A DNA stretch of 64,000 bases from Deferribacterales bacterium. GTDB taxonomy: Bacteria; Chrysiogenota; Deferribacteres; Deferribacterales; Geovibrionaceae. Every line of letters starts with the position of its first letter. Position 1 is the first letter of the stretch. Below the pieces are notes generated by a model that was given only the letters and a program-made list of their open reading frames with translations, was not told the DNA's origin and searched no databases. Shown one piece after another: positions 3,772 through 49,026 of the stretch. Location: NCBI GenBank assembly GCA_050251945.1, contig JBFWLW010000005.1:32001-96000 (forward strand), read 5' to 3'. Made by a program: the position numbers and the translations under genes.

Positions 3772-5085
3772 TTATATATGAAGCTTTTTCACATAATCCG
3801 AAATAATCTGTTTATGGTCAAATGCTATATTCACGGGAAGTTCCGTAAACTTAAAGAACACTGCATTTTTTGCGTCGTCACCCGCTTTGGGAGTCTGCGC
3901 GGAATCTGTGTAATACACAGCGGTCGCGGTATGTCCTCTTTTATCTCTTTTCGGATCGGAATAGATGCCGAGCAGTTCTATTTTGTCGGCTTTGATACCT
4001 GTTTCTTCAAAAAGTTCGCGGACGGCAGCGTCTTCAACTTTTTCGCCGTAGTCGACAAATCCTCCGGGGATCGCCCAGCCGAGAGGCTCGTTAATCCGTT
4101 CGATAAGCAGGATGGAGTCACCGTTTCGGACTATTACATCCGCAGTAAGTTTCGGAGTGTAAAGGTAGTGACCGCCGTATTTGAACTGAACGCTTCTGAA
4201 CACGGTTTCGCAGTAGGGTGCGGATAGTCCGTGTTTTTCAAGTGTTCTTATGACTGGACCAAGGATTCCGTCTATCTCCGGATTTTTAAGCCTTTCTATG
4301 TCCTGAAGCATGCTCGTTTTGTATTTTTCAAGCTGATCGCTGTACTTTATCTTCTGACGCCATTCCTGTTCGGTAATGGTGACGCCATCAAGCTTTGCCG
4401 CGGCGACCGTCTCTTTTACCATCTTTTCGATTAGCTCGAAAATGAGCGGATTTCTCATCATCGGACCGCATGTGCTTTCAAGAAGCGCTGAAAGCGGGTT
4501 ATAAGCCACGTTCCAGACCAGTTTGCTCCAAAGAGTGTGCCTTATGTCGGGAGAGATGTTTGAAAGTACTTCGCTCTTGTCGAATATCTCCTTTATGGGC
4601 TGTTCAAATCGTTTCGCACCTTCCGACCATGCGCCGAAGATGCATTCGCCCGTGCTTGTGTGGTTAACGGTTCCGGCAGGCTCAATCCACAGACCGACAA
4701 ACAGACTTGCGCCGACGGTTCTGTCCGCCCCGAAATGCTCCGCCAGAACGTTCGGGTTTTCCACGCCGTTCTGGAAAGACACGATGCATCCGTCATCCGC
4801 GAGATTGTCCTTTAACTGTCTGCACGTTTCCCCGGTATCCTGCGATTTGACGCAGAGGATTATCATGCCGTATCTGCCGCTTGCCTGAGCCACGGCTTTA
4901 ACAGGGATTACAGGTTCGCCGTGTTTCCAGCTTTTCATTTTCAGAACGCCTGTTTCCTGCATGGCTTTCAGGTGTCTGCCCCTTGCCATGAGTTCAACGT
5001 CGTAGCCTGCCTTTGACATCAGCCCGCCGTAAAAGCTGCCGATGGCTCCGGCTCCTGCAATGAGTATTCTTTTATTTGAGAACAA
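3772..5085 (-). CDS. panE: Ketopantoate reductase fused to a C-terminal Nudix hydrolase
   Basis: GAGAIG, CVKS, QNG, WSKLVWN and TSMLQD motifs, then Nudix box GGFVDYGEKVEDAAVRELFEETG in one frame. Confidence 0.9.
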   Translation of the reverse strand: MFSNKRILIAGAGAIGSFYGGLMSKAGYDVELMARGRHLKAMQETGVLKMKSWKHGEPVIPVKAVAQASGRYGMIILCVKSQDTGETCRQLKDNLADDGCIVSFQNGVENPNVLAEHFGADRTVGASLFVGLWIEPAGTVNHTSTGECIFGAWSEGAKRFEQPIKEIFDKSEVLSNISPDIRHTLWSKLVWNVAYNPLSALLESTCGPMMRNPLIFELIEKMVKETVAAAKLDGVTITEQEWRQKIKYSDQLEKYKTSMLQDIERLKNPEIDGILGPVIRTLEKHGLSAPYCETVFRSVQFKYGGHYLYTPKLTADVIVRNGDSILLIERINEPLGWAIPGGFVDYGEKVEDAAVRELFEETGIKADKIELLGIYSDPKRDKRGHTATAVYYTDSAQTPKAGDDAKNAVFFKFTELPVNIAFDHKQIISDYVKKLHI

Positions 5086-8288: not shown

Positions 8289-8792
8289 ATGGCAGTCAGA
8301 GAAGTATTGAAATATCCGGATCCCCGTCTGAAGGAGATCGCAGACGACGTCGTTGAGATAAACGATTATATAAAGCAGGTCATCACAGACCTTTCAGACA
8401 CAATGGAAGCCGCAGGACACTCCACAGGCATAGCCGCAACGCAGATAGGCGAGAACGTGCGCATAGTTGTTGCGGATGCTTCAAAGAATGCAAAGTGCGA
8501 GGTTAACCACGGCAGACTTGTTCTGATCAATCCGGAGGTTATCCAGTGGGAGGGCATGATACAGTTCCGCGAGGGCTGTATGAGCGTGCCGGACTACACT
8601 GGAAACGTTAACCGCGCCAAGAAGATACTTCTGCGGTATCAGGATGAGAATCTTGAGCAGAAGGTCATTGAGGCGGAGGATTTCGAGGCGGTGCTTTTAC
8701 AGCATGAGACAGACCACCTCGACGGTACGCTGTTCCTCGACAGGGTCATATCCAAACGTACCGACCTGTTCCGCAGAAAGAAATTCAAATAG
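8289..8792 (+). CDS. def: Peptide deformylase
   Basis: GIAATQIG, EGCMS and HETDHLDG motifs. Confidence 0.95.
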   Translation: MAVREVLKYPDPRLKEIADDVVEINDYIKQVITDLSDTMEAAGHSTGIAATQIGENVRIVVADASKNAKCEVNHGRLVLINPEVIQWEGMIQFREGCMSVPDYTGNVNRAKKILLRYQDENLEQKVIEAEDFEAVLLQHETDHLDGTLFLDRVISKRTDLFRRKKFK

Positions 8793-8793
8793 G

Positions 8794-8928
8794 TTATTCA
8801 GCGCTCAGCTCATAAGCGACCTGTTCCTTTGCCTGCGGCTGAACGTTTTTCTGTCCGCCGTTAACAGCGAACAGTATAAGAAATCCGAAGAATATCACAG
8901 CGGTTATGTGTATTGCATATCTGTCCAT
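8794..8928 (-). CDS. 44-aa single-pass membrane micro-protein (not in ORF track)
   Basis: AGGAGG 5 nt before ATG 8928; MDRYAIHITAVIFFGFLILFAVNGGQKNVQPQAKEQVAYELSAE; TAA at 8796-8794 next to the def stop. Confidence 0.8.
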   Translation of the reverse strand: MDRYAIHITAVIFFGFLILFAVNGGQKNVQPQAKEQVAYELSAE

Positions 8929-8947
8929 ATTTTCCTCCTACAGGTCT

Positions 8948-8984
8948 AATATAAAACAGGCAAGCGACAACTGCTGTCGTTTGC
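8948..8984 (-). promoter_or_regulatory. Putative WYL-activated promoter and operator 1
   Basis: Palindrome GCAAGCGACA-N5-TGTCGTTTGC (8960-8984); minus strand reads TGTCGC-N10-TATATT. Confidence 0.7.
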
Positions 8985-9000
8985 ATGCGAAAAATTATAC

Positions 9001-9702
9001 GTCTCTGCAAGGAATGAAATGACGAAGCAGTCTTAACGGTTCAGATCGCTTTGGGCTGAGCCTCGCGAAGACAAAAAGAGAGTGTCTCTGCGAGGAATGA
9101 AATGGCGGAGCAGTCTTAACGGTTTAGATCGCTTCAGGTTAAGCCCTCGCGAAGACAAAAAGAGAACGTCTCTGCGGGGAATGAAATGGCGAAGCAGTCT
9201 TAACGGTTCAGATCGCTTCGGGCAAAGCCTCGCGAAGACAAAAAGAGAACGTCTCTGCGGGGAATAAAATGACGAAGCAGTCTTAACGGTTCAGATCGCT
9301 TCGGGCTGAGCCTCGCGAAGACAAAATGAGAATGTCTCTGCGGGGAATGAAATGACGAAGCAGTCTTAACAGTTTAGATCGCTTCGGGCTGAGCCCTCGC
9401 GAAGACAAAAAGAGAGTGTCTCTGCGAGGAATGAAATGACGAAGCAGTCTTAACAGTTTAGATCGCTTCGGGCTGAGCCTCGCGAAGACAAAAAGAGAGT
9501 GTCTCTGCGGGGAATGAAATGGCGAAACAGTCTTAACGGTTCAGATCGCTTCGGGCTGAGCCCTCGCGAAGACAAAAAGAGAGTGTCTCTGCGAGGAATG
9601 AAATGACGAAGCAGTCTTAACATTTTAGATCGCTTCGGGCTGAGCCCTCGCGAAGACAAAAAGAGAACGTCTCTGCGAGGAATGAAATGACGAAGCAGTC
9701 TC
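9001..9702. repeat. Tandem array of 8 full plus 1 partial 83/84-bp units, each an inverted REP doublet (BIME-like)
   Basis: Units start at 9001, 9084, 9168, 9251, 9334, 9418, 9501, 9585, 9669; consensus GTCTCTGCGRGGAATGAAATGRCGAAGCAGTCT-TAACRGTTY-AGATCGCTTCGGGCTGAGC(C)CTCGCGAAGAC-AAAAAGAGARY. Confidence 0.95.
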
Positions 9703-9708
9703 AATTCA

Positions 9709-9739
9709 ATGGCGACAATATGTGTCGCCGTGGTATACT
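9709..9739 (+). promoter_or_regulatory. Putative WYL operator 2 next to the WYL gene -10 box
   Basis: GGCGACA-N5-TGTCGCC (9711-9729), TATACT (9734-9739), ATG at 9745. Confidence 0.7.
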
Positions 9740-9744
9740 TTCCC

Positions 9745-10662
9745 ATGAATAAACTTTATGTAGCTCTGAATCTGATAAGACTTCTCAACGAGAACAGAAC
9801 TGTGACATCCGTTCTGGTGGCGGAGGATATGGGTATCAGCCTGCGCACGGCACAGCGGTACCTGTTGGAAATGAGCCACCTGCCGGGGGTCTGCTATGAC
9901 GATTCCCGCCACTGCTGGTATATGACGGAGAAATACGGACTTTCCGAAAGCTATCTGAAACAGGATGAACTTGCCGTTCTGTCGGGGCTTTTCGATTATG
10001 CCGAGAACATTCTGAACAACGATTTTTCGCCGGTTCTGCGGAAGATAAAAAAGAAAGTAATCTCCGCATCAAACAGGGAGAGGGTCGTTCGTTTTCTGAA
10101 ACAGGATTCAATAGAATTCGAGAAGATAGCCGATATTTTCGCTGAAATTGAAGTTTTTATCATGAACCGTCAGGAGATATCTTTTCTGTACAGCAAAAAC
10201 GGCAAAAGCTACACGATACAGCCCTACAGGATAATTTACGGCGACGGGTTCTGGTATCTGGCGGGTGGAAAGGGCGGCGAACTGCGCAAATTCAGCCTCG
10301 ACCTGATAACTGAAATCAAACCAACCGGAAAACTTTACGACAAGGTGCCGGAAGGACTGGACACCGCCATTGACGAGGCTAAGAGCATCTTTTTCGATTC
10401 GGGTCAGAAAGTTACCGTTGAGTGCGTGATGAACCATCCTATGTCCGATTACCTGCGGCGTAAGCGTTTCTTCCCTCATCAGCAGATACTGGAGGAGAAT
10501 GACGATATGAGTTTGCGTTTCAGTTTTAAGGTTGCCTCTCCGCTGGAATGTACAAAACTGTGCCTCGACTGGCTCCCGCACATCAAGGTATTATCACCGG
10601 ATTCAATGCGCGATTATCTGATCGGAGTTTTGAAAGATTCTCTTGATTCTTATCATCTCTGA
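9745..10662 (+). CDS. WYL-domain transcriptional regulator (wHTH-WYL-WCX; YafY/PafBC/DriD-like)
   Basis: HTH VAEDMGISLRTAQRYL; PYRIIYGDGFWYLAG; RKFSLDLI; VLSP in WCX; start moved to 9745 because 9709 lies in the operator. Confidence 0.92.
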   Translation: MNKLYVALNLIRLLNENRTVTSVLVAEDMGISLRTAQRYLLEMSHLPGVCYDDSRHCWYMTEKYGLSESYLKQDELAVLSGLFDYAENILNNDFSPVLRKIKKKVISASNRERVVRFLKQDSIEFEKIADIFAEIEVFIMNRQEISFLYSKNGKSYTIQPYRIIYGDGFWYLAGGKGGELRKFSLDLITEIKPTGKLYDKVPEGLDTAIDEAKSIFFDSGQKVTVECVMNHPMSDYLRRKRFFPHQQILEENDDMSLRFSFKVASPLECTKLCLDWLPHIKVLSPDSMRDYLIGVLKDSLDSYHL

Positions 10663-11036
10663 CAGCGCAAAATTTTATATTTGATTTTTGTCTGTGTAGC
10701 CGAAACCCTCTCCCAGTCAGTAAAGTTTATCTTAAGCACTGTAATTTCTCAAGACAATCATAATAATAAATAAAAAAAATTAAGATTTTTTCTCTGTTTA
10801 TTCAGTAAGCCATTGTTCAATATTAAACTGTGGTTTTATACGATAAAATTTACCTTATTATCAGTTTATTAGTTTAACAATAAATTCAAAAACAATCGGT
10901 TCTCTCATTGTTAAAAAGCGTTATTATCAAACAGTAGTTATAGGATTTAAAGAGTCTTTTAATCTTGACGCGTGTATTTTGAGTGGTACTCTTGGGGCAT
11001 GTATTTCATGTTAATTTTGTTAACGGAGGTTTTTTA

Positions 11037-12350
11037 ATGGATGCAATAGCTCTGTCAAGACTTCAGTTTGCACTTACGGCAGGTTTCCACTGGATTTTCG
11101 TCCCTCTTACTCTGGGACTGATAATTCTTACTGCCTTTATGGAAACAATGTATGTGCGGACCGGAAACACACTTTATCTCAGAATGACTAAATTCTGGGG
11201 AAAATTGTTTCTCATCAACTTCGCAATAGGAGTTGTGACCGGTATAACCATGGAATTCCAGTTCGGAATGAACTGGGCGGAATACTCGAAATATGTGGGC
11301 GACATATTCGGGGCGCCACTGGCAATTGAGGCGACTGTGGCATTTTTTCTTGAGTCCACTTTTCTTGGAATCTGGATTTTCGGGTGGAAAAAGATAAGCA
11401 AAAAAGCTCACCTTTTTGCAGTCTGGATGGTGGCTCTCGGTTCAAACCTTTCTGCGCTGTGGATTCTCATAGCGAATGCATGGATGCAGCATCCTGTGGG
11501 GTATGTTCTTAATAACGGCAGGGCGGAGATGGTTGATTTCGGGGCGCTCATCTTCTCATCATCAGCGTGGGTGAAATTCTTCCATTCAATCTCTTCCGGC
11601 TGGGTTGTGGCGGCATTTTTCGTTATGGGAGTGTCCGCGTATCATATACTTAGAAAGAACGAAGTCGAATTCTTTAAAAAGAGTCTTAAATTCGGAGCTG
11701 TATTCGGGCTTGCGGCAACAATTTTCCTTGCTGTGCTGGGCGACAGTAGCGGTATCGACGTTGCGAAACACCAGCCTTCAAAATTTGCCGCAATGGAATC
11801 ACTCTGGGAAACACAGAACGGTGCACCCTCGTATCTGTTTGCTGTTCCGGACAGCGCAAACGAGAGAAACTCAGTGGAGTTCATCCCTGTTCCGAAAATG
11901 GCAAGCTTTCTTGCGTTTCATGATGTTAACGCAGAGGTTAAAGGTCTGAAAGAGTATTCTTCCGATCTCAGACCGCCGGTTGGGCTGACATTCTTCAGTT
12001 TCCGTTTTATGATCTATCTTGGCGTAATTTTCATAGTTTTGTCCTGCATGGCTCTTTACTACTCGAAAAAGGACACTATTGAGAACAAAACACTGCTTTT
12101 GAAAATACTGCTTTATTCCATTCCGCTGCCGTATATTGCCGGACAGCTTGGCTGGATTGTTGCAGAGGTCGGCAGGCAGCCATGGATAGTATACGGGCTT
12201 ATGAAAACGTCTGACGCGGTGTCCGTAAACCTTACACCCGCTCACGTTATCCTTTCCCTTGTGGGATTCGTTGGTTTTTACACACTGCTTGGCATAATAG
12301 ATATTTTCCTGCTGGTGAAATATTCTAAAAAAGGACCCGAAAGGGCATAG
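11037..12350 (+). CDS. cydA: Cytochrome bd oxidase subunit I
   Basis: LSRLQFALTAGFHW, EFQFGMNW, QPSKFAAME, EVGRQPW; ATG 11037 behind GGAGG. Confidence 0.97.
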   Translation: MDAIALSRLQFALTAGFHWIFVPLTLGLIILTAFMETMYVRTGNTLYLRMTKFWGKLFLINFAIGVVTGITMEFQFGMNWAEYSKYVGDIFGAPLAIEATVAFFLESTFLGIWIFGWKKISKKAHLFAVWMVALGSNLSALWILIANAWMQHPVGYVLNNGRAEMVDFGALIFSSSAWVKFFHSISSGWVVAAFFVMGVSAYHILRKNEVEFFKKSLKFGAVFGLAATIFLAVLGDSSGIDVAKHQPSKFAAMESLWETQNGAPSYLFAVPDSANERNSVEFIPVPKMASFLAFHDVNAEVKGLKEYSSDLRPPVGLTFFSFRFMIYLGVIFIVLSCMALYYSKKDTIENKTLLLKILLYSIPLPYIAGQLGWIVAEVGRQPWIVYGLMKTSDAVSVNLTPAHVILSLVGFVGFYTLLGIIDIFLLVKYSKKGPERA

Positions 12351-12360
12351 GGAGGCGAAA

Positions 12361-13401
12361 ATGGGACTTGAAACATTACAAATTATCTGGTTCGCCCTCT
12401 GGGGACTGCTCTGGGCTGTATATTTTATGCTGGACGGTTTTGATTTCGGTGCGGGCTATTTGATGCCGTTCCTTGCGAAATCCGATACGGATAAGCGCAT
12501 TATAATAAACACACTGGGACCTGTATGGGACGGTAACGAGGTCTGGCTTATCACTGCCGGCGGCGCGACTTTTGCGGCGTTTCCCACTACATATGCATAT
12601 ATGTTCAGCTGGCTTTATCTGCCGCTTCTGCTCATACTTTTCTGTCTGATTTTCAGAGGGGTCGCCTTTGAGTTCAGAGGTAAAAAGGATTCTTACGGCT
12701 GGCAGAACGGATGGGACAAAGTTATTGCAGTGAGCAGTTTCCTTGCCGCGTTTCTGTTCGGTGTTGCGTTTGGCAATATTTTCAGAGGCATACCCATCAA
12801 TATGGTTGACGGACAGTTTGTTTATGAAGGTAACTTTTTCCTTCTGCTGAATCCATACGCCATTCTTACTGGAATACTTTTCGTCCTTGTTTTTGCTTAT
12901 CACGGAGCTCTGTGGCTTAACTGCAAAACGGAAGGGGAGCTTTCTGTGCGTGCGGCTAAAATGGCGAAAAAACTGTTCATTCCCCTTGTTGTTGTGGCAG
13001 TTCTCTTCCTTGCAATGACATATTTTTCAACGCATCTGTATGATAACTTCTTTAAAATGCCTGCATTTTTTGCCGTTATCTTTCTTTGCGTCGTTTCTCT
13101 GCTGGTTTCCGGTCTATTTAAAGGCGTTAAGGCGTTCGCGCTTTCATGTCTTGTGATCGTGCTTACGGTTTTTACGGGTATTATAGGGCTTTTCCCAAGT
13201 CTGATACCTTCAAGCATATCACCGGAATTTTCCCTCACTGCCTTCAATACTTCGTCCAGCCTCTACACGCTTAAAATAATGACAATCGTTGTTGCCATGT
13301 TTGTGCCTGTGGTGCTGGTATATCAGATATGGTCGTATTATATCTTCAGACACCCCGTAAAACCTGAAGATATAGCCGATCCCGACGTTGAGACCTACTG
13401 A
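12361..13401 (+). CDS. cydB: Cytochrome bd oxidase subunit II
   Basis: LDGFDFG, GPVWDGNEVWL, RGVAFEFR. Confidence 0.97.
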   Translation: MGLETLQIIWFALWGLLWAVYFMLDGFDFGAGYLMPFLAKSDTDKRIIINTLGPVWDGNEVWLITAGGATFAAFPTTYAYMFSWLYLPLLLILFCLIFRGVAFEFRGKKDSYGWQNGWDKVIAVSSFLAAFLFGVAFGNIFRGIPINMVDGQFVYEGNFFLLLNPYAILTGILFVLVFAYHGALWLNCKTEGELSVRAAKMAKKLFIPLVVVAVLFLAMTYFSTHLYDNFFKMPAFFAVIFLCVVSLLVSGLFKGVKAFALSCLVIVLTVFTGIIGLFPSLIPSSISPEFSLTAFNTSSSLYTLKIMTIVVAMFVPVVLVYQIWSYYIFRHPVKPEDIADPDVETY

Positions 13402-48815: not shown

Positions 48816-48978
48816 GTCTCTGCGAGCCGATGCAGTCGGCGCGGCAGTCTGAGTGGTTCAGATCGCGTCGGGCGCTGCCCTCGCGAAGACGAAACAAAAC
48901 CAAGTCTCTGCGAGCCGATGCAGTCGGCGCGGCAGTCTGAATGGTTTAGATCGCGTCGGGCGTTGCCCTCGCGAAGAC
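48816..48978. repeat. Two-unit (88 bp) REP-doublet array
   Basis: Units at 48816 and 48904; same architecture as the 9001 array with different loops. Confidence 0.9.
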
Positions 48979-49026
48979 GGATGAAGTTTCAGTATGAAAC
49001 CAGCAGAACAAAAAAACGCTGATTTA

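Follow-up and report, generated by a model that had tools for sequence, protein, structure and literature searches.

What does a WYL-domain regulator control in Deferribacterales when a very small membrane protein is encoded back to back with it? The question is raised by a locus in a 64,000-nucleotide window (the whole stretch of DNA that was analysed) of a Deferribacterales bacterium, which a first-pass annotation had read as an SOS-independent damage module with a homodimeric WYL activator and a new membrane effector. The explanation that we favour with reasonable confidence is a DriD/DdaA-type WYL activator that drives both the microprotein gene and recA, with single-stranded DNA (ssDNA) as its likely trigger and the microprotein as its putative membrane effector. 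Genome comparison establishes the gene, the boxes, their spacing, the classes of predicted target and the absence of LexA boxes; the individual features are collected in Table 1.

Table 1. Features of the microprotein-WYL locus, in coordinates of the window.
Feature	Position	Strand	Basis
Microprotein gene, 44 aa; one-helix membrane protein of a genus-restricted family of 40-47 aa	8794..8928	-	ORF, homology
Shine-Dalgarno AGGAGG, 5 nt before the ATG	8934..8939	-	Invariant in 7/7 genomes
-10 hexamer TATATT, 11 nt downstream of the TGTCG half-site	8948..8953	-	Pattern, alignment
Predicted WYL box 1, CGACA-N5-TGTCG, in activator position for the microprotein promoter	8965..8979	.	Pattern, conservation
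Tandem array, 8.4 copies of an 83-84-bp REP/MITE-like dispersed element	9001..9701	+	Repeat analysis
Predicted WYL box 2, CGACA-N5-TGTCG, over the -35/spacer of the WYL gene's own promoter	9713..9727	.	Pattern
Extended -10 TG-N-TATACT, 5 nt before the WYL ATG, without RBS	9731..9739	+	Sequence
Regulator, 305 aa, wHTH-helical linker-WYL-WCX, DriD-like	9745..10662	+	Domain and structure matches

The 44-aa ORF is, on comparative grounds, a real gene. The ORF itself, its ribosome-binding site, its one hydrophobic helix and its divergence from the wHTH-WYL-WCX gene were all reproduced, and its conservation, a check named beforehand, is borne out by homologues in all seven genomes of the genus, with none in 61 others of the phylum; the single longer homologue is a start call extended upstream. 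The ORF is not, as had been claimed, uncalled or hidden: the exact protein is already among the NCBI and ENA gene calls, and its relatives are RefSeq hypothetical proteins. Its helix is apolar (best 19-residue Kyte-Doolittle mean 2.37, from residue 4), residues 4-26 include no charged one, and the invariant I8, I12, F13, L19, F20 and N23 share a 140-degree arc. By codon comparison the microprotein is under purifying selection, with a dN/dS of 0.04-0.20 over codons 1-25 in nine of the ten pairs of five close genomes (the tenth is saturated); when the two subgroups of the genus are compared, it has changed about twice as fast as the WYL protein (pN 0.32-0.38 vs 0.14-0.17). Searches of Pfam, NCBIfam, PADLOC and PHROGs gave nothing significant (no PHROG match below E 0.06), no homologue was found outside the genus, and a metagenome scan with the microprotein alignment returned 597 pattern matches, none of them confirmed. 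In the ESM Atlas, the best score was 0.84, with Blr and YwtC at 0.82, all under the reliable range, and the resemblance to Blr (147 of 256 features) lies within the range attained by shuffled proteins. The gene is convergent with def and hence monocistronic; a reading as def antisense was discarded, since in two relatives (G001 and G003) the ORF converges on another gene. The microprotein represents a new, strictly genus-level family, which can be tested in a cultured relative.

The promoter of this gene is laid out with great regularity. Palindrome, N11, TA-N3-T and ribosome-binding site are fixed in all seven genomes while the surrounding sequence varies, both halves of the box and the TA and sixth-position T of the hexamer being kept throughout. 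With one mismatch allowed, box 1 reaches across 8960-8984; its start lies 51 nt ahead of the ATG in six of the six loci listed, and it stands in the same register in all seven genomes. As first described, the promoter reads TGTCGC-N10-TATATT without a clear -35, and no sigma-70 -35 was found under box 1; the predicted 5' UTR measures about 13 nt. A genome scan for CGACA-N5-TGTCG-N11-TA-N3-T, likewise named beforehand, finds the microprotein promoter as the sole exact match in 3.07 Mb. The fixed spacing supports the earlier proposal of a WYL activator encoded by one gene, with its palindrome standing in for the -35 at the promoter of a conserved micro-membrane protein. The novelty claimed for a PafBC-like geometry in a homodimer does not stand, as DriD already has such a site (CGAC-N7-GTCG), in promoters that have no -35 and keep the site at a constant spacing from the -10 (PMC13004042). 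Judging from these sequence features, the system is very probably a DriD/DdaA-type activator regulon and not a new PafBC-like mechanism.

The same palindrome recurs, as had been noted, upstream of the WYL gene, whose start conserved in relatives is the ATG at 9745 and not the 9709 given by the ORF finder. Box 2, a perfect palindrome across 9711-9729, overlaps the promoter match GCGACA-16-TATACT, a position of the autorepression type from which it most likely damps the regulator's own expression; the extended -10 directly before the start codon points to an mRNA that is probably leaderless. This overlap, together with the single box found between two -10 elements in G001 and G003, would also suit repression of the two divergent promoters by a BrxR/CapW-type protein that ssDNA releases. 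We hold such a repressor to be very unlikely, as repression does not need a fixed 11-nt distance to the -10, no sigma-70 promoter was found under box 1, and the fold search places BrxR and CapW lower than DriD and PafBC.

A distance of 816 nt separates the microprotein promoter from the WYL promoter, owing to 8.4 repeat copies that form an array of about 700 bp between box 1 and box 2; this array had been overlooked. The repeated element has 40 hits in 25 clusters genome-wide, this array being the largest; it is genome-specific and outside the conserved module, the intergenic length in six relatives being 67-267 nt. It is not a CRISPR, its units being near-identical end to end, without unique spacers, and a search of this genome for a Y1/RAYT transposase was negative (the control was positive in 6 of 14). 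Downstream of the WYL gene lies cydAB, for cytochrome bd (11037-13401); the other neighbours are def and an ACT-domain gene.

The regulator (WYL domain, E 2e-10; WCX, E 6e-7) has DriD as its only sequence match in the PDB (E 1e-7), and DriD is also at the top of the fold search, ahead of PafBC, BrxR and CapW. Its predicted structure (pLDDT 76, pTM 0.40) has helices at 73-89, 95-107 and 125-140, and R34 and R38, at i and i+4 of the recognition helix, are invariant in 21 of 21 sequences and align with the DriD helix. The only other WYL match in the genome, on contig C16, is 26% identical. Our search of the literature, with subscription papers mostly beyond its reach, found no description of a WYL regulator or of a LexA/SOS box in Deferribacter; one supplement of PMC12392091 contains none of five Deferribacterales names, while the figures and tree labels of that paper may include homologues.

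Within the sensor pocket, Y149 and Y171 correspond to DriD Y168 and Y192, and five of the ten DriD contacts with ssDNA (as given in PMC10853764) are kept or conservatively replaced (Y168, Y192, R204, W206 and Y240), S172 falling in a gap region. The contacts R178, R189, R207 and R288 align to Y156, G168, S184 and L267. In DriD, R207A and R176A-R178A impair or abolish activity, and the matching arginines of PafB are required for ssDNA binding (PMC11804915). The replacement of four arginines in the pocket makes ssDNA sensing less certain than the first-pass annotation assumed; we nevertheless lean towards ssDNA from DNA damage or phage as the trigger. A rather doubtful alternative leaves activator and regulon as they are and has the rewired pocket, with its invariant Y156, K182 and R239-K240, take another ligand (ssRNA or a nucleotide signal) or render the protein partly constitutive. 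The four replacements do extend across the clade, the 16 closest 50%-cluster representatives have Arg at the R207 position in 2 cases and Tyr at the R178 position in 15, and a c-di-GMP-sensing WYL regulator is reported (PMC11880434). However, the pocket retains both tyrosines shown to be important in DdaA, the R204 equivalent and aromatics at W206 and Y240, DdaA, itself short of one of the arginines, is still damage-responsive, and relatives in genus g13, which retain the R207 equivalent, control recA too.

That the DriD/DdaA-type activator is linked to DNA damage, as first proposed, is supported by recA, which a third perfect box, overlooked earlier, marks as a second target (upstream, on contig C6 at 98331-98345). 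The 15-mer CGACA-N5-TGTCG is not enriched in the genome (4 found vs 4.85 expected), and three of the four lie upstream of the microprotein gene, the WYL gene and recA; two within 800 bp are expected about 8e-7 times. With the relaxed CGWCA-N5-TGWCG, 12 sites are found, 5 of them intergenic, which makes for a small regulon. The recA box stands at exactly -99 in five of the seven genus genomes and is present in 10 of the 12 genomes of g13, which belongs to another family; its -10 side reads TATTAA or TATCAA, without the -7 T. It is absent from the other two genus genomes, from the examined recA regions of genera g4 and g2 and from the WYL-bearing G061, and a g13 genome without a WYL match has no recA box within two mismatches.

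A spacer scan of 41 genomes, whose counts include WYL-adjacent boxes and come from kin that are not independent, placed 39 of 118 palindrome-TA-N3-T matches at spacer 11, with 4-15 at each of the other eight spacers. Matches at spacer 11 occur in 17 of the 23 genomes with a WYL gene and in none of the 18 without; part of g13 uses spacer 10. Among 44 matches inspected, 7 precede the microprotein gene, 5 recA, 3 cas1 (type I-F for the one cas1 locus scanned), 1 a WYL gene and 1 a YopX gene, followed by 11 for defence-type or nucleic-acid enzymes and ATPases, 7 for lipoproteins, membrane or exported proteins, 4 for genes without a family and 5 without a near ORF. The reversed pattern gave 22 matches against these 44, so some of the sites may be due to chance. 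In relatives, the same box stands before cas1, SspB, HsdM, PDC-S37 and other defence genes.

LexA is present in 16 of 17 genomes, and a separate, Gram-positive-type box (CGAAC-N4-GTTCG) precedes lexA in all seven of the genus. No such box with at most one mismatch was found in the microprotein or WYL promoter, in agreement with the independence from LexA boxes first claimed, and the WYL box is found in none of 16 lexA promoters; one LexA-type core with one mismatch lies within the gene divergent from recA, some 160 nt upstream. With recA under a WYL box and lexA under a separate one, this is the first candidate damage-response wiring for Deferribacterota that our searches brought up. We rejected, as barely credible, three further readings: the palindrome as a local LexA box, suggested by its place before recA; the ORF as a CydX-like subunit of cytochrome bd, suggested by cydAB right after the WYL gene; and the ORF as a leftover lipoprotein signal peptide, suggested by the lipoprotein in the divergent slot of locus L076. 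Against the first stand the own box of lexA and the lexA promoters free of the WYL box; against the second, the other genes that follow the WYL gene in five of six relatives (the sixth, G002, was left out); and against the third, the lack of similarity to the L076 lipoprotein (E 12), the purifying selection and the upstream-extended start call of the only longer homologue.

What the microprotein does is less firmly indicated. The divergent slot is occupied in other genera by lipoproteins or defence ATPases, and it therefore does not imply a division inhibitor. By analogy with DidA, SidA and AciT, the microprotein may tentatively be taken as a division brake, at somewhat below an even chance. 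A little nearer to that mark comes an effector role in the envelope or against phage, or the modulation of a membrane enzyme or transporter: in relatives, targets other than recA are mostly defence genes, lipoproteins and small membrane proteins, and the divergent target of DriD itself is an uncharacterised gene with a TonB-dependent transporter, not didA. Yet the microprotein is fixed in seven of seven genomes, whereas defence targets come and go, and a membrane division inhibitor belongs to the regulon of each of the two homodimeric activators so far characterised. Membrane-depolarising type I toxins such as TisB and DinQ are small and hydrophobic, with a damage-linked promoter, a long structured leader or antisense RNA, and a charged helix face. 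The microprotein shares the size, hydrophobicity and damage-linked promoter, but its short predicted 5' UTR leaves no room for a structured leader, residues 4-26 offer no charge, and Rfam gave no match at E<=1 over 8700-11100, although an undescribed antisense RNA may be present. A toxin of this kind fits poorly and, with an abortive-infection effector, for which PADLOC and PHROGs likewise gave no match, is improbable.

In the mechanism that we propose, the 305-aa protein would act as a homodimer whose R34 and R38 read the two halves of CGWCA-N5-TGWCG. The box, 11 nt before TA-N3-T, would replace the -35 and recruit RNA polymerase, switching on the microprotein gene, an upstream recA promoter and, in relatives, recently acquired defence genes, while box 2 would damp the regulator's own expression. 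The microprotein would sit in the inner membrane and bind a membrane partner via its one conserved helix face. Very probably, then, recA and a genus-only membrane microprotein are switched on by a damage-sensing regulator of a known kind. This would extend the DriD/DdaA damage-and-defence switch, whose mechanism is already published, to Deferribacterota; the arginine-poor pocket offers a natural test of what WYL domains require for ssDNA sensing, and, if the microprotein blocks division, WYL activators would repeatedly have recruited unrelated membrane peptides as checkpoints. A bolder version, which we consider a long shot, has the WYL activator take over recA induction in two Deferribacterota lineages, with LexA retained but seemingly controlling little beyond itself, the pocket rewired off the arginine cage in this genus, and the 44-aa protein as the third WYL-induced division brake to evolve independently, after DidA and AciT, and aimed at a new target in the divisome.

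Among known systems, the damage-induced division inhibitors DidA (71 aa) and SidA (29 aa; PMC4211646) and the divisome peptides of the Blr type share with the microprotein the size class, the single helix and the damage-type promoter; the family searches gave it no match. BrxR and CapW have the same domain order, an operator over their own promoter (as box 2) and defence targets of the kind seen in relatives, but they rank lower by fold, the target spacing here is of the activator type and no BREX or CBASS genes lie beside the locus. PafBC of mycobacteria (PMC8635444, PMC11804915), with tGTCgg-N10-tA-N3-T, has the same spacing from half-site to -10, the lack of a -35, recA as a target and an Arg pair reading GTC. 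Unlike the single WYL gene and full palindromes of this locus, it is a two-gene heterodimer with a non-palindromic half-site at -26 and sigma adaptation, and the 305-aa regulator lacks the arginines on which ssDNA binding by PafB depends.

DdaA of Moraxellaceae, compared here through its published descriptions, recognises CGWCA-N5-TGWCG and switches on recA, CRISPR and restriction-modification genes and the membrane division inhibitor AciT (PMC12392091, PMC13010146, PMC8316044). Box 2 is identical to the aciT site in all 15 letters, the Arg i/i+4 pair of the recognition helix and the two sensor tyrosines are shared, and the regulon likewise mixes recA, CRISPR-Cas, restriction-modification genes and a membrane protein, though in the present genome it is small; Acinetobacter is without LexA, in contrast to these genomes, and AciT has three predicted helices against one here. 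DriD of Caulobacter crescentus (PMC9186387, PMC10853764, PMC13004042; PDB 8tp8, 9pfv) differs in its roughly 20% identity, in the four arginines, in the lack of a second box over its own promoter, in the LexA box that Caulobacter recA also carries (no convincing one was found here) and in DidA, whose counterpart here is the divergent neighbour. It is nonetheless the nearest by sequence and fold, with the same domain order, a common CGAC-N7-GTCG site in place of the -35, a gene whose own site separates it from a divergent target, a regulon that includes recA and a small membrane protein of one helix, and coexistence with LexA.

The microprotein divergent from the WYL gene is a real gene of narrow range and constitutes a new family at the genus level. 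Its ORF and AGGAGG motif lie where the first-pass annotation had placed them; its description there as uncalled was mistaken, as an identical protein sequence is present among the NCBI and ENA gene calls. The conservation and synteny that were to be checked are evident: a profile search recovered the microprotein in all seven genomes of the genus (E ≤ 4e-20), every time divergent from the WYL gene, and in none of the 61 genomes searched elsewhere in the phylum. The protein collection holds nine clusters of 35-47 aa, with one 93-aa record whose start was called too far upstream, and the named relatives within the same 90% clusters belong to Seleniivibrio (Deferribacterota, Geovibrionaceae). For codons 1-25, dN/dS is 0.04-0.20 in nine of the ten pairs of five close genomes (the tenth is saturated) and third codon positions account for 17 of the 28 variable columns; in the other two genomes the ratio is 0.10 (40 codons). 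Comparisons across the two subgroups give noisy values (0.25-1.8), with a divergence about twice that of the WYL protein. No family was matched in Pfam, NCBIfam, PADLOC or PHROG. Residues 4-22 form a single apolar helix, and I8, I12, F13, L19, F20, N23 and G25 are invariant across 12 sequences; as the invariant helix positions fall inside 140 degrees, they suggest a predicted binding face.

Coordinates of the features discussed (positions in the window, G000:C5:32001-96000, unless a contig or locus of the source genome, G000, or of a relative is named)
Feature	Location	Strand
ketopantoate reductase (ApbA) fused to a C-terminal NUDIX domain	3772-5085	-
microprotein, 44 aa	8928-8794	-
WYL box 1 (CGACA-N5-TGTCG)	8965-8979	
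repeat array	9001-9701	
WYL box 2 (CGACA-N5-TGTCG)	9713-9727	
WYL gene, 305 aa, ATG at 9745	9745-10662	+
cydAB, between WYL gene and membrane gene	11037-13401	
membrane gene, 272 aa	13481	
further site of the repeat element	48816-48979	
LexA box	G000:C1:288337-288350	
WYL box by a tRNA-like gene (L136)	G000:C2:305838-305865	
second WYL gene (L030)	G000:C16:24729-25322	
small lipoprotein-like gene, 51 aa	L196:2019-2171	-
small lipoprotein-like gene	L107:1566-1970	
small lipoprotein-like gene	L117:1098-1499	

Both palindromes noted earlier, and the TGTCGC-N10-TATATT promoter, are present. The 15-mer occurs four times in the whole genome against 4.85 expected, so that what is unlikely about the boxes is their placement, not their genome-wide number. 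Box, TA-N3-T hexamer and ribosome-binding site of the microprotein keep an identical register in 7/7 genomes, with varying spacer letters, and a promoter scan in this direction gave no sigma-70 match. On the WYL side, 5-6 nt separate the box from an extended -10, itself 5 nt before the ATG, and the scan read GCGACA-16-TATACT; box 2 is thus predicted to be in a repressor-type position, and the WYL promoter is probably leaderless. Across 41 genomes, a spacer of 11 nt between palindrome and TA-N3-T accounts for 39 of 118 matches (4-15 for each other spacer of 7-15) and occurs in 17/23 WYL-bearing versus 0/18 WYL-lacking genomes, figures that are descriptive because kin are non-independent, WYL-adjacent boxes are included and the matches listed cover only some of the spacers at each site.

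A dispersed repeat of 83-84 bp, overlooked in the first-pass annotation, stands between the boxes in 8.4 copies and has 40 matches in 25 clusters across the genome. The distance between the two ATGs is 67 nt in G001 and G003, where one single box serves both genes, 120-267 nt in four other relatives and 816 nt here, and we therefore infer, order of events included, that the array is a local insertion separating duplicated boxes. The element (83-88 bp) is REP/MITE-like, with terminal inverted arms and head-to-tail amplification; a search of the genome for a Y1/RAYT transposase as its mover found none. Further downstream, the membrane gene directly follows the WYL gene in G004 and G006, and cydAB would therefore have been gained here or lost there.

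In the regulator, the WYL and WCX domains exceed the Pfam cut-offs and the HTH falls below. The DriD chains are its sole WYL matches in a phmmer search against PDB sequences (E 3e-8 to 1e-7), a 21-sequence profile additionally matches PafBC (7.5e-5), and a fold ranking with the AlphaFold model (pLDDT 76, pTM 0.40) places DriD (1e-14) ahead of PafBC (2e-12), BrxR and CapW (both 7-8e-9). R34 and R38 are invariant, with the spacing of DdaA R47/R51 and PafB R46/R50. Reading the ten ssDNA contacts of DriD off the phmmer alignment, Y168, Y192, R204, W206 and Y240 correspond to Y149, Y171, R181, F183 and F216, whereas arginines R178, R189, R207 and R288 become Y156, G168, S184 and L267, and S172 lands in a gap. 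The arginine replacement is clade-wide, and conserved basic residues (K182, R239-K240) may possibly substitute. On balance we lean towards ssDNA as the signal; doubt comes mainly from the four replaced pocket arginines, and another or a weak ligand appears rather unlikely. A second, distant WYL gene (L030, also L029) immediately precedes the mraZ/division cluster; it is divergent from a gene of ~170 aa, lacks a CGACA box and probably belongs to a different WYL subfamily.

A perfect third box, also overlooked before, lies on contig C6, 99 nt upstream of recA. Among 30 recA upstream regions examined (from 40 matches), six carry it: five of the seven in the genus, always at -99, and G034; four further regions have none. 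In g13, the genus of G034 from another family, it precedes recA in 10/12 genomes, omitting G065, whose record has no upstream sequence. G028, with no WYL match, has no box within two mismatches in its recA promoter; G061 has WYL, yet no recA box, and G059 has the box with a merely weak WYL match. At spacer 11 the recA hexamer is often TATTAA in both lineages, the -7 T being absent. A decayed palindrome persists at the box place in G028; the g13 promoters (L200-L209, L037, L039) have spacers of 10 or 11, and g13 WYL proteins keep an arginine at the R207-equivalent position.

CGWCA-N5-TGWCGY-N10-TA gave 44 matches in 17 genomes (22 for the reversed-pattern control), all inspected, and occurs in 11/11 WYL-bearing versus 0/6 WYL-lacking genomes. 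Candidate targets are the microprotein (7), recA (5), cas1 (3), WYL (1), YopX (1), 11 defence-type or nucleic-acid enzymes and ATPases (SspB, PDC-S37/DUF4011, DUF499, IetA-like AAA, ADP-ribosylglycohydrolases, a Sir2 operon, DEDD exonucleases, a metallo-hydrolase) and 7 lipoprotein, membrane or exported genes; 4 have no family and 5 lack a near ORF. G034 adds HsdM and endonuclease I, and the source genome has 12 CGWCA-N5-TGWCG sites, five of them intergenic. The L136 box is directed into an AT-rich island; the first gene there, 460 nt away and beyond a repeat element, encodes a T5orf172/Sel1 protein. Spacer-11 boxes also stand over small lipoprotein-like genes (L196; the L107/L117 pair, 134-135 aa, no Pfam family), and envelope proteins may be recurring targets.

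LexA is present in 16 of the 17 genomes, and its box, CGAAC-N4-GTTCG, precedes lexA in 7/7 genomes of the genus. As neither the microprotein nor the WYL promoter contains one, the proposed SOS independence holds in that sense. Among six LexA-box matches listed near ORF starts in the source genome, only that at lexA is convincing, so that its SOS regulon may be minimal. The box resembles the Gram-positive one (L168-L182).

The mechanism we consider probable is dimer-box activation of recA, microprotein and defence genes: the WYL dimer would bind the box, substitute for the -35 and recruit RNA polymerase at spacer-11 promoters, raising RecA from the upstream promoter and turning on the microprotein gene, incoming defence genes would be captured into the regulon, and box 2 would limit the regulator's own synthesis. 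By analogy, a division brake is tentatively the most likely single function of the microprotein, at clearly less than even odds, because its gene is retained as constantly as recA and such a target occurs in the regulon of each of the two homodimeric activators characterised so far. A role as envelope or anti-phage effector or as enzyme modulator takes a slightly larger, still less-than-even share of the likelihood, spread across several targets; a depolarising toxin is improbable.

In Geobacteraceae, wHTH-only kin (L078, L079, L080, L081, L083) have N-terminal 67-71 aa 41-51% identical to the regulator, and four read at full length (142-207 aa) carry a short Cys-containing tail instead of a WYL domain. 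CGWCA-N5-TGWCG-like boxes occur at 4/5; L078, L083 and likewise L077 have a Cys-rich ORF of 61-69 aa as their divergent gene, L079 and L081 a PAS histidine kinase. They may represent a branch without WYL that uses the same box and senses metals or redox state.

The regulator is not a PafBC: PafBC is a heterodimer on tGTCgg(N10)tA(N3)T (PMC8635444, PMC11804915), and here we find DriD/DdaA features. DdaA recognises CGWCA-N5-TGWCG, and the genes it activates are recA, aciT and those of CRISPR-Cas and RM systems (PMC12392091, PMC13010146). By our own count from the promoter oligonucleotides in the methods of PMC13004042, two DriD promoters have 10 nt between half-site, TG(T/G)CGC, and hexamer (A at position 2, T at position 6), the spacing of the microprotein locus; the DriD comparison draws also on PMC9186387 and PMC10853764 (ssDNA contacts). 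Known small proteins are DidA (71 aa, single helix, FtsN binder) and SidA (29 aa), both from PMC4211646, and AciT, with three predicted helices (PMC8316044). New here are the genus-level microprotein family and the recA link, the kind of regulator being already published: it is predicted to work like DriD and DdaA, with every tested family feature present apart from the pocket, where 5/10 contacts are kept or conservatively replaced and four arginines are replaced.
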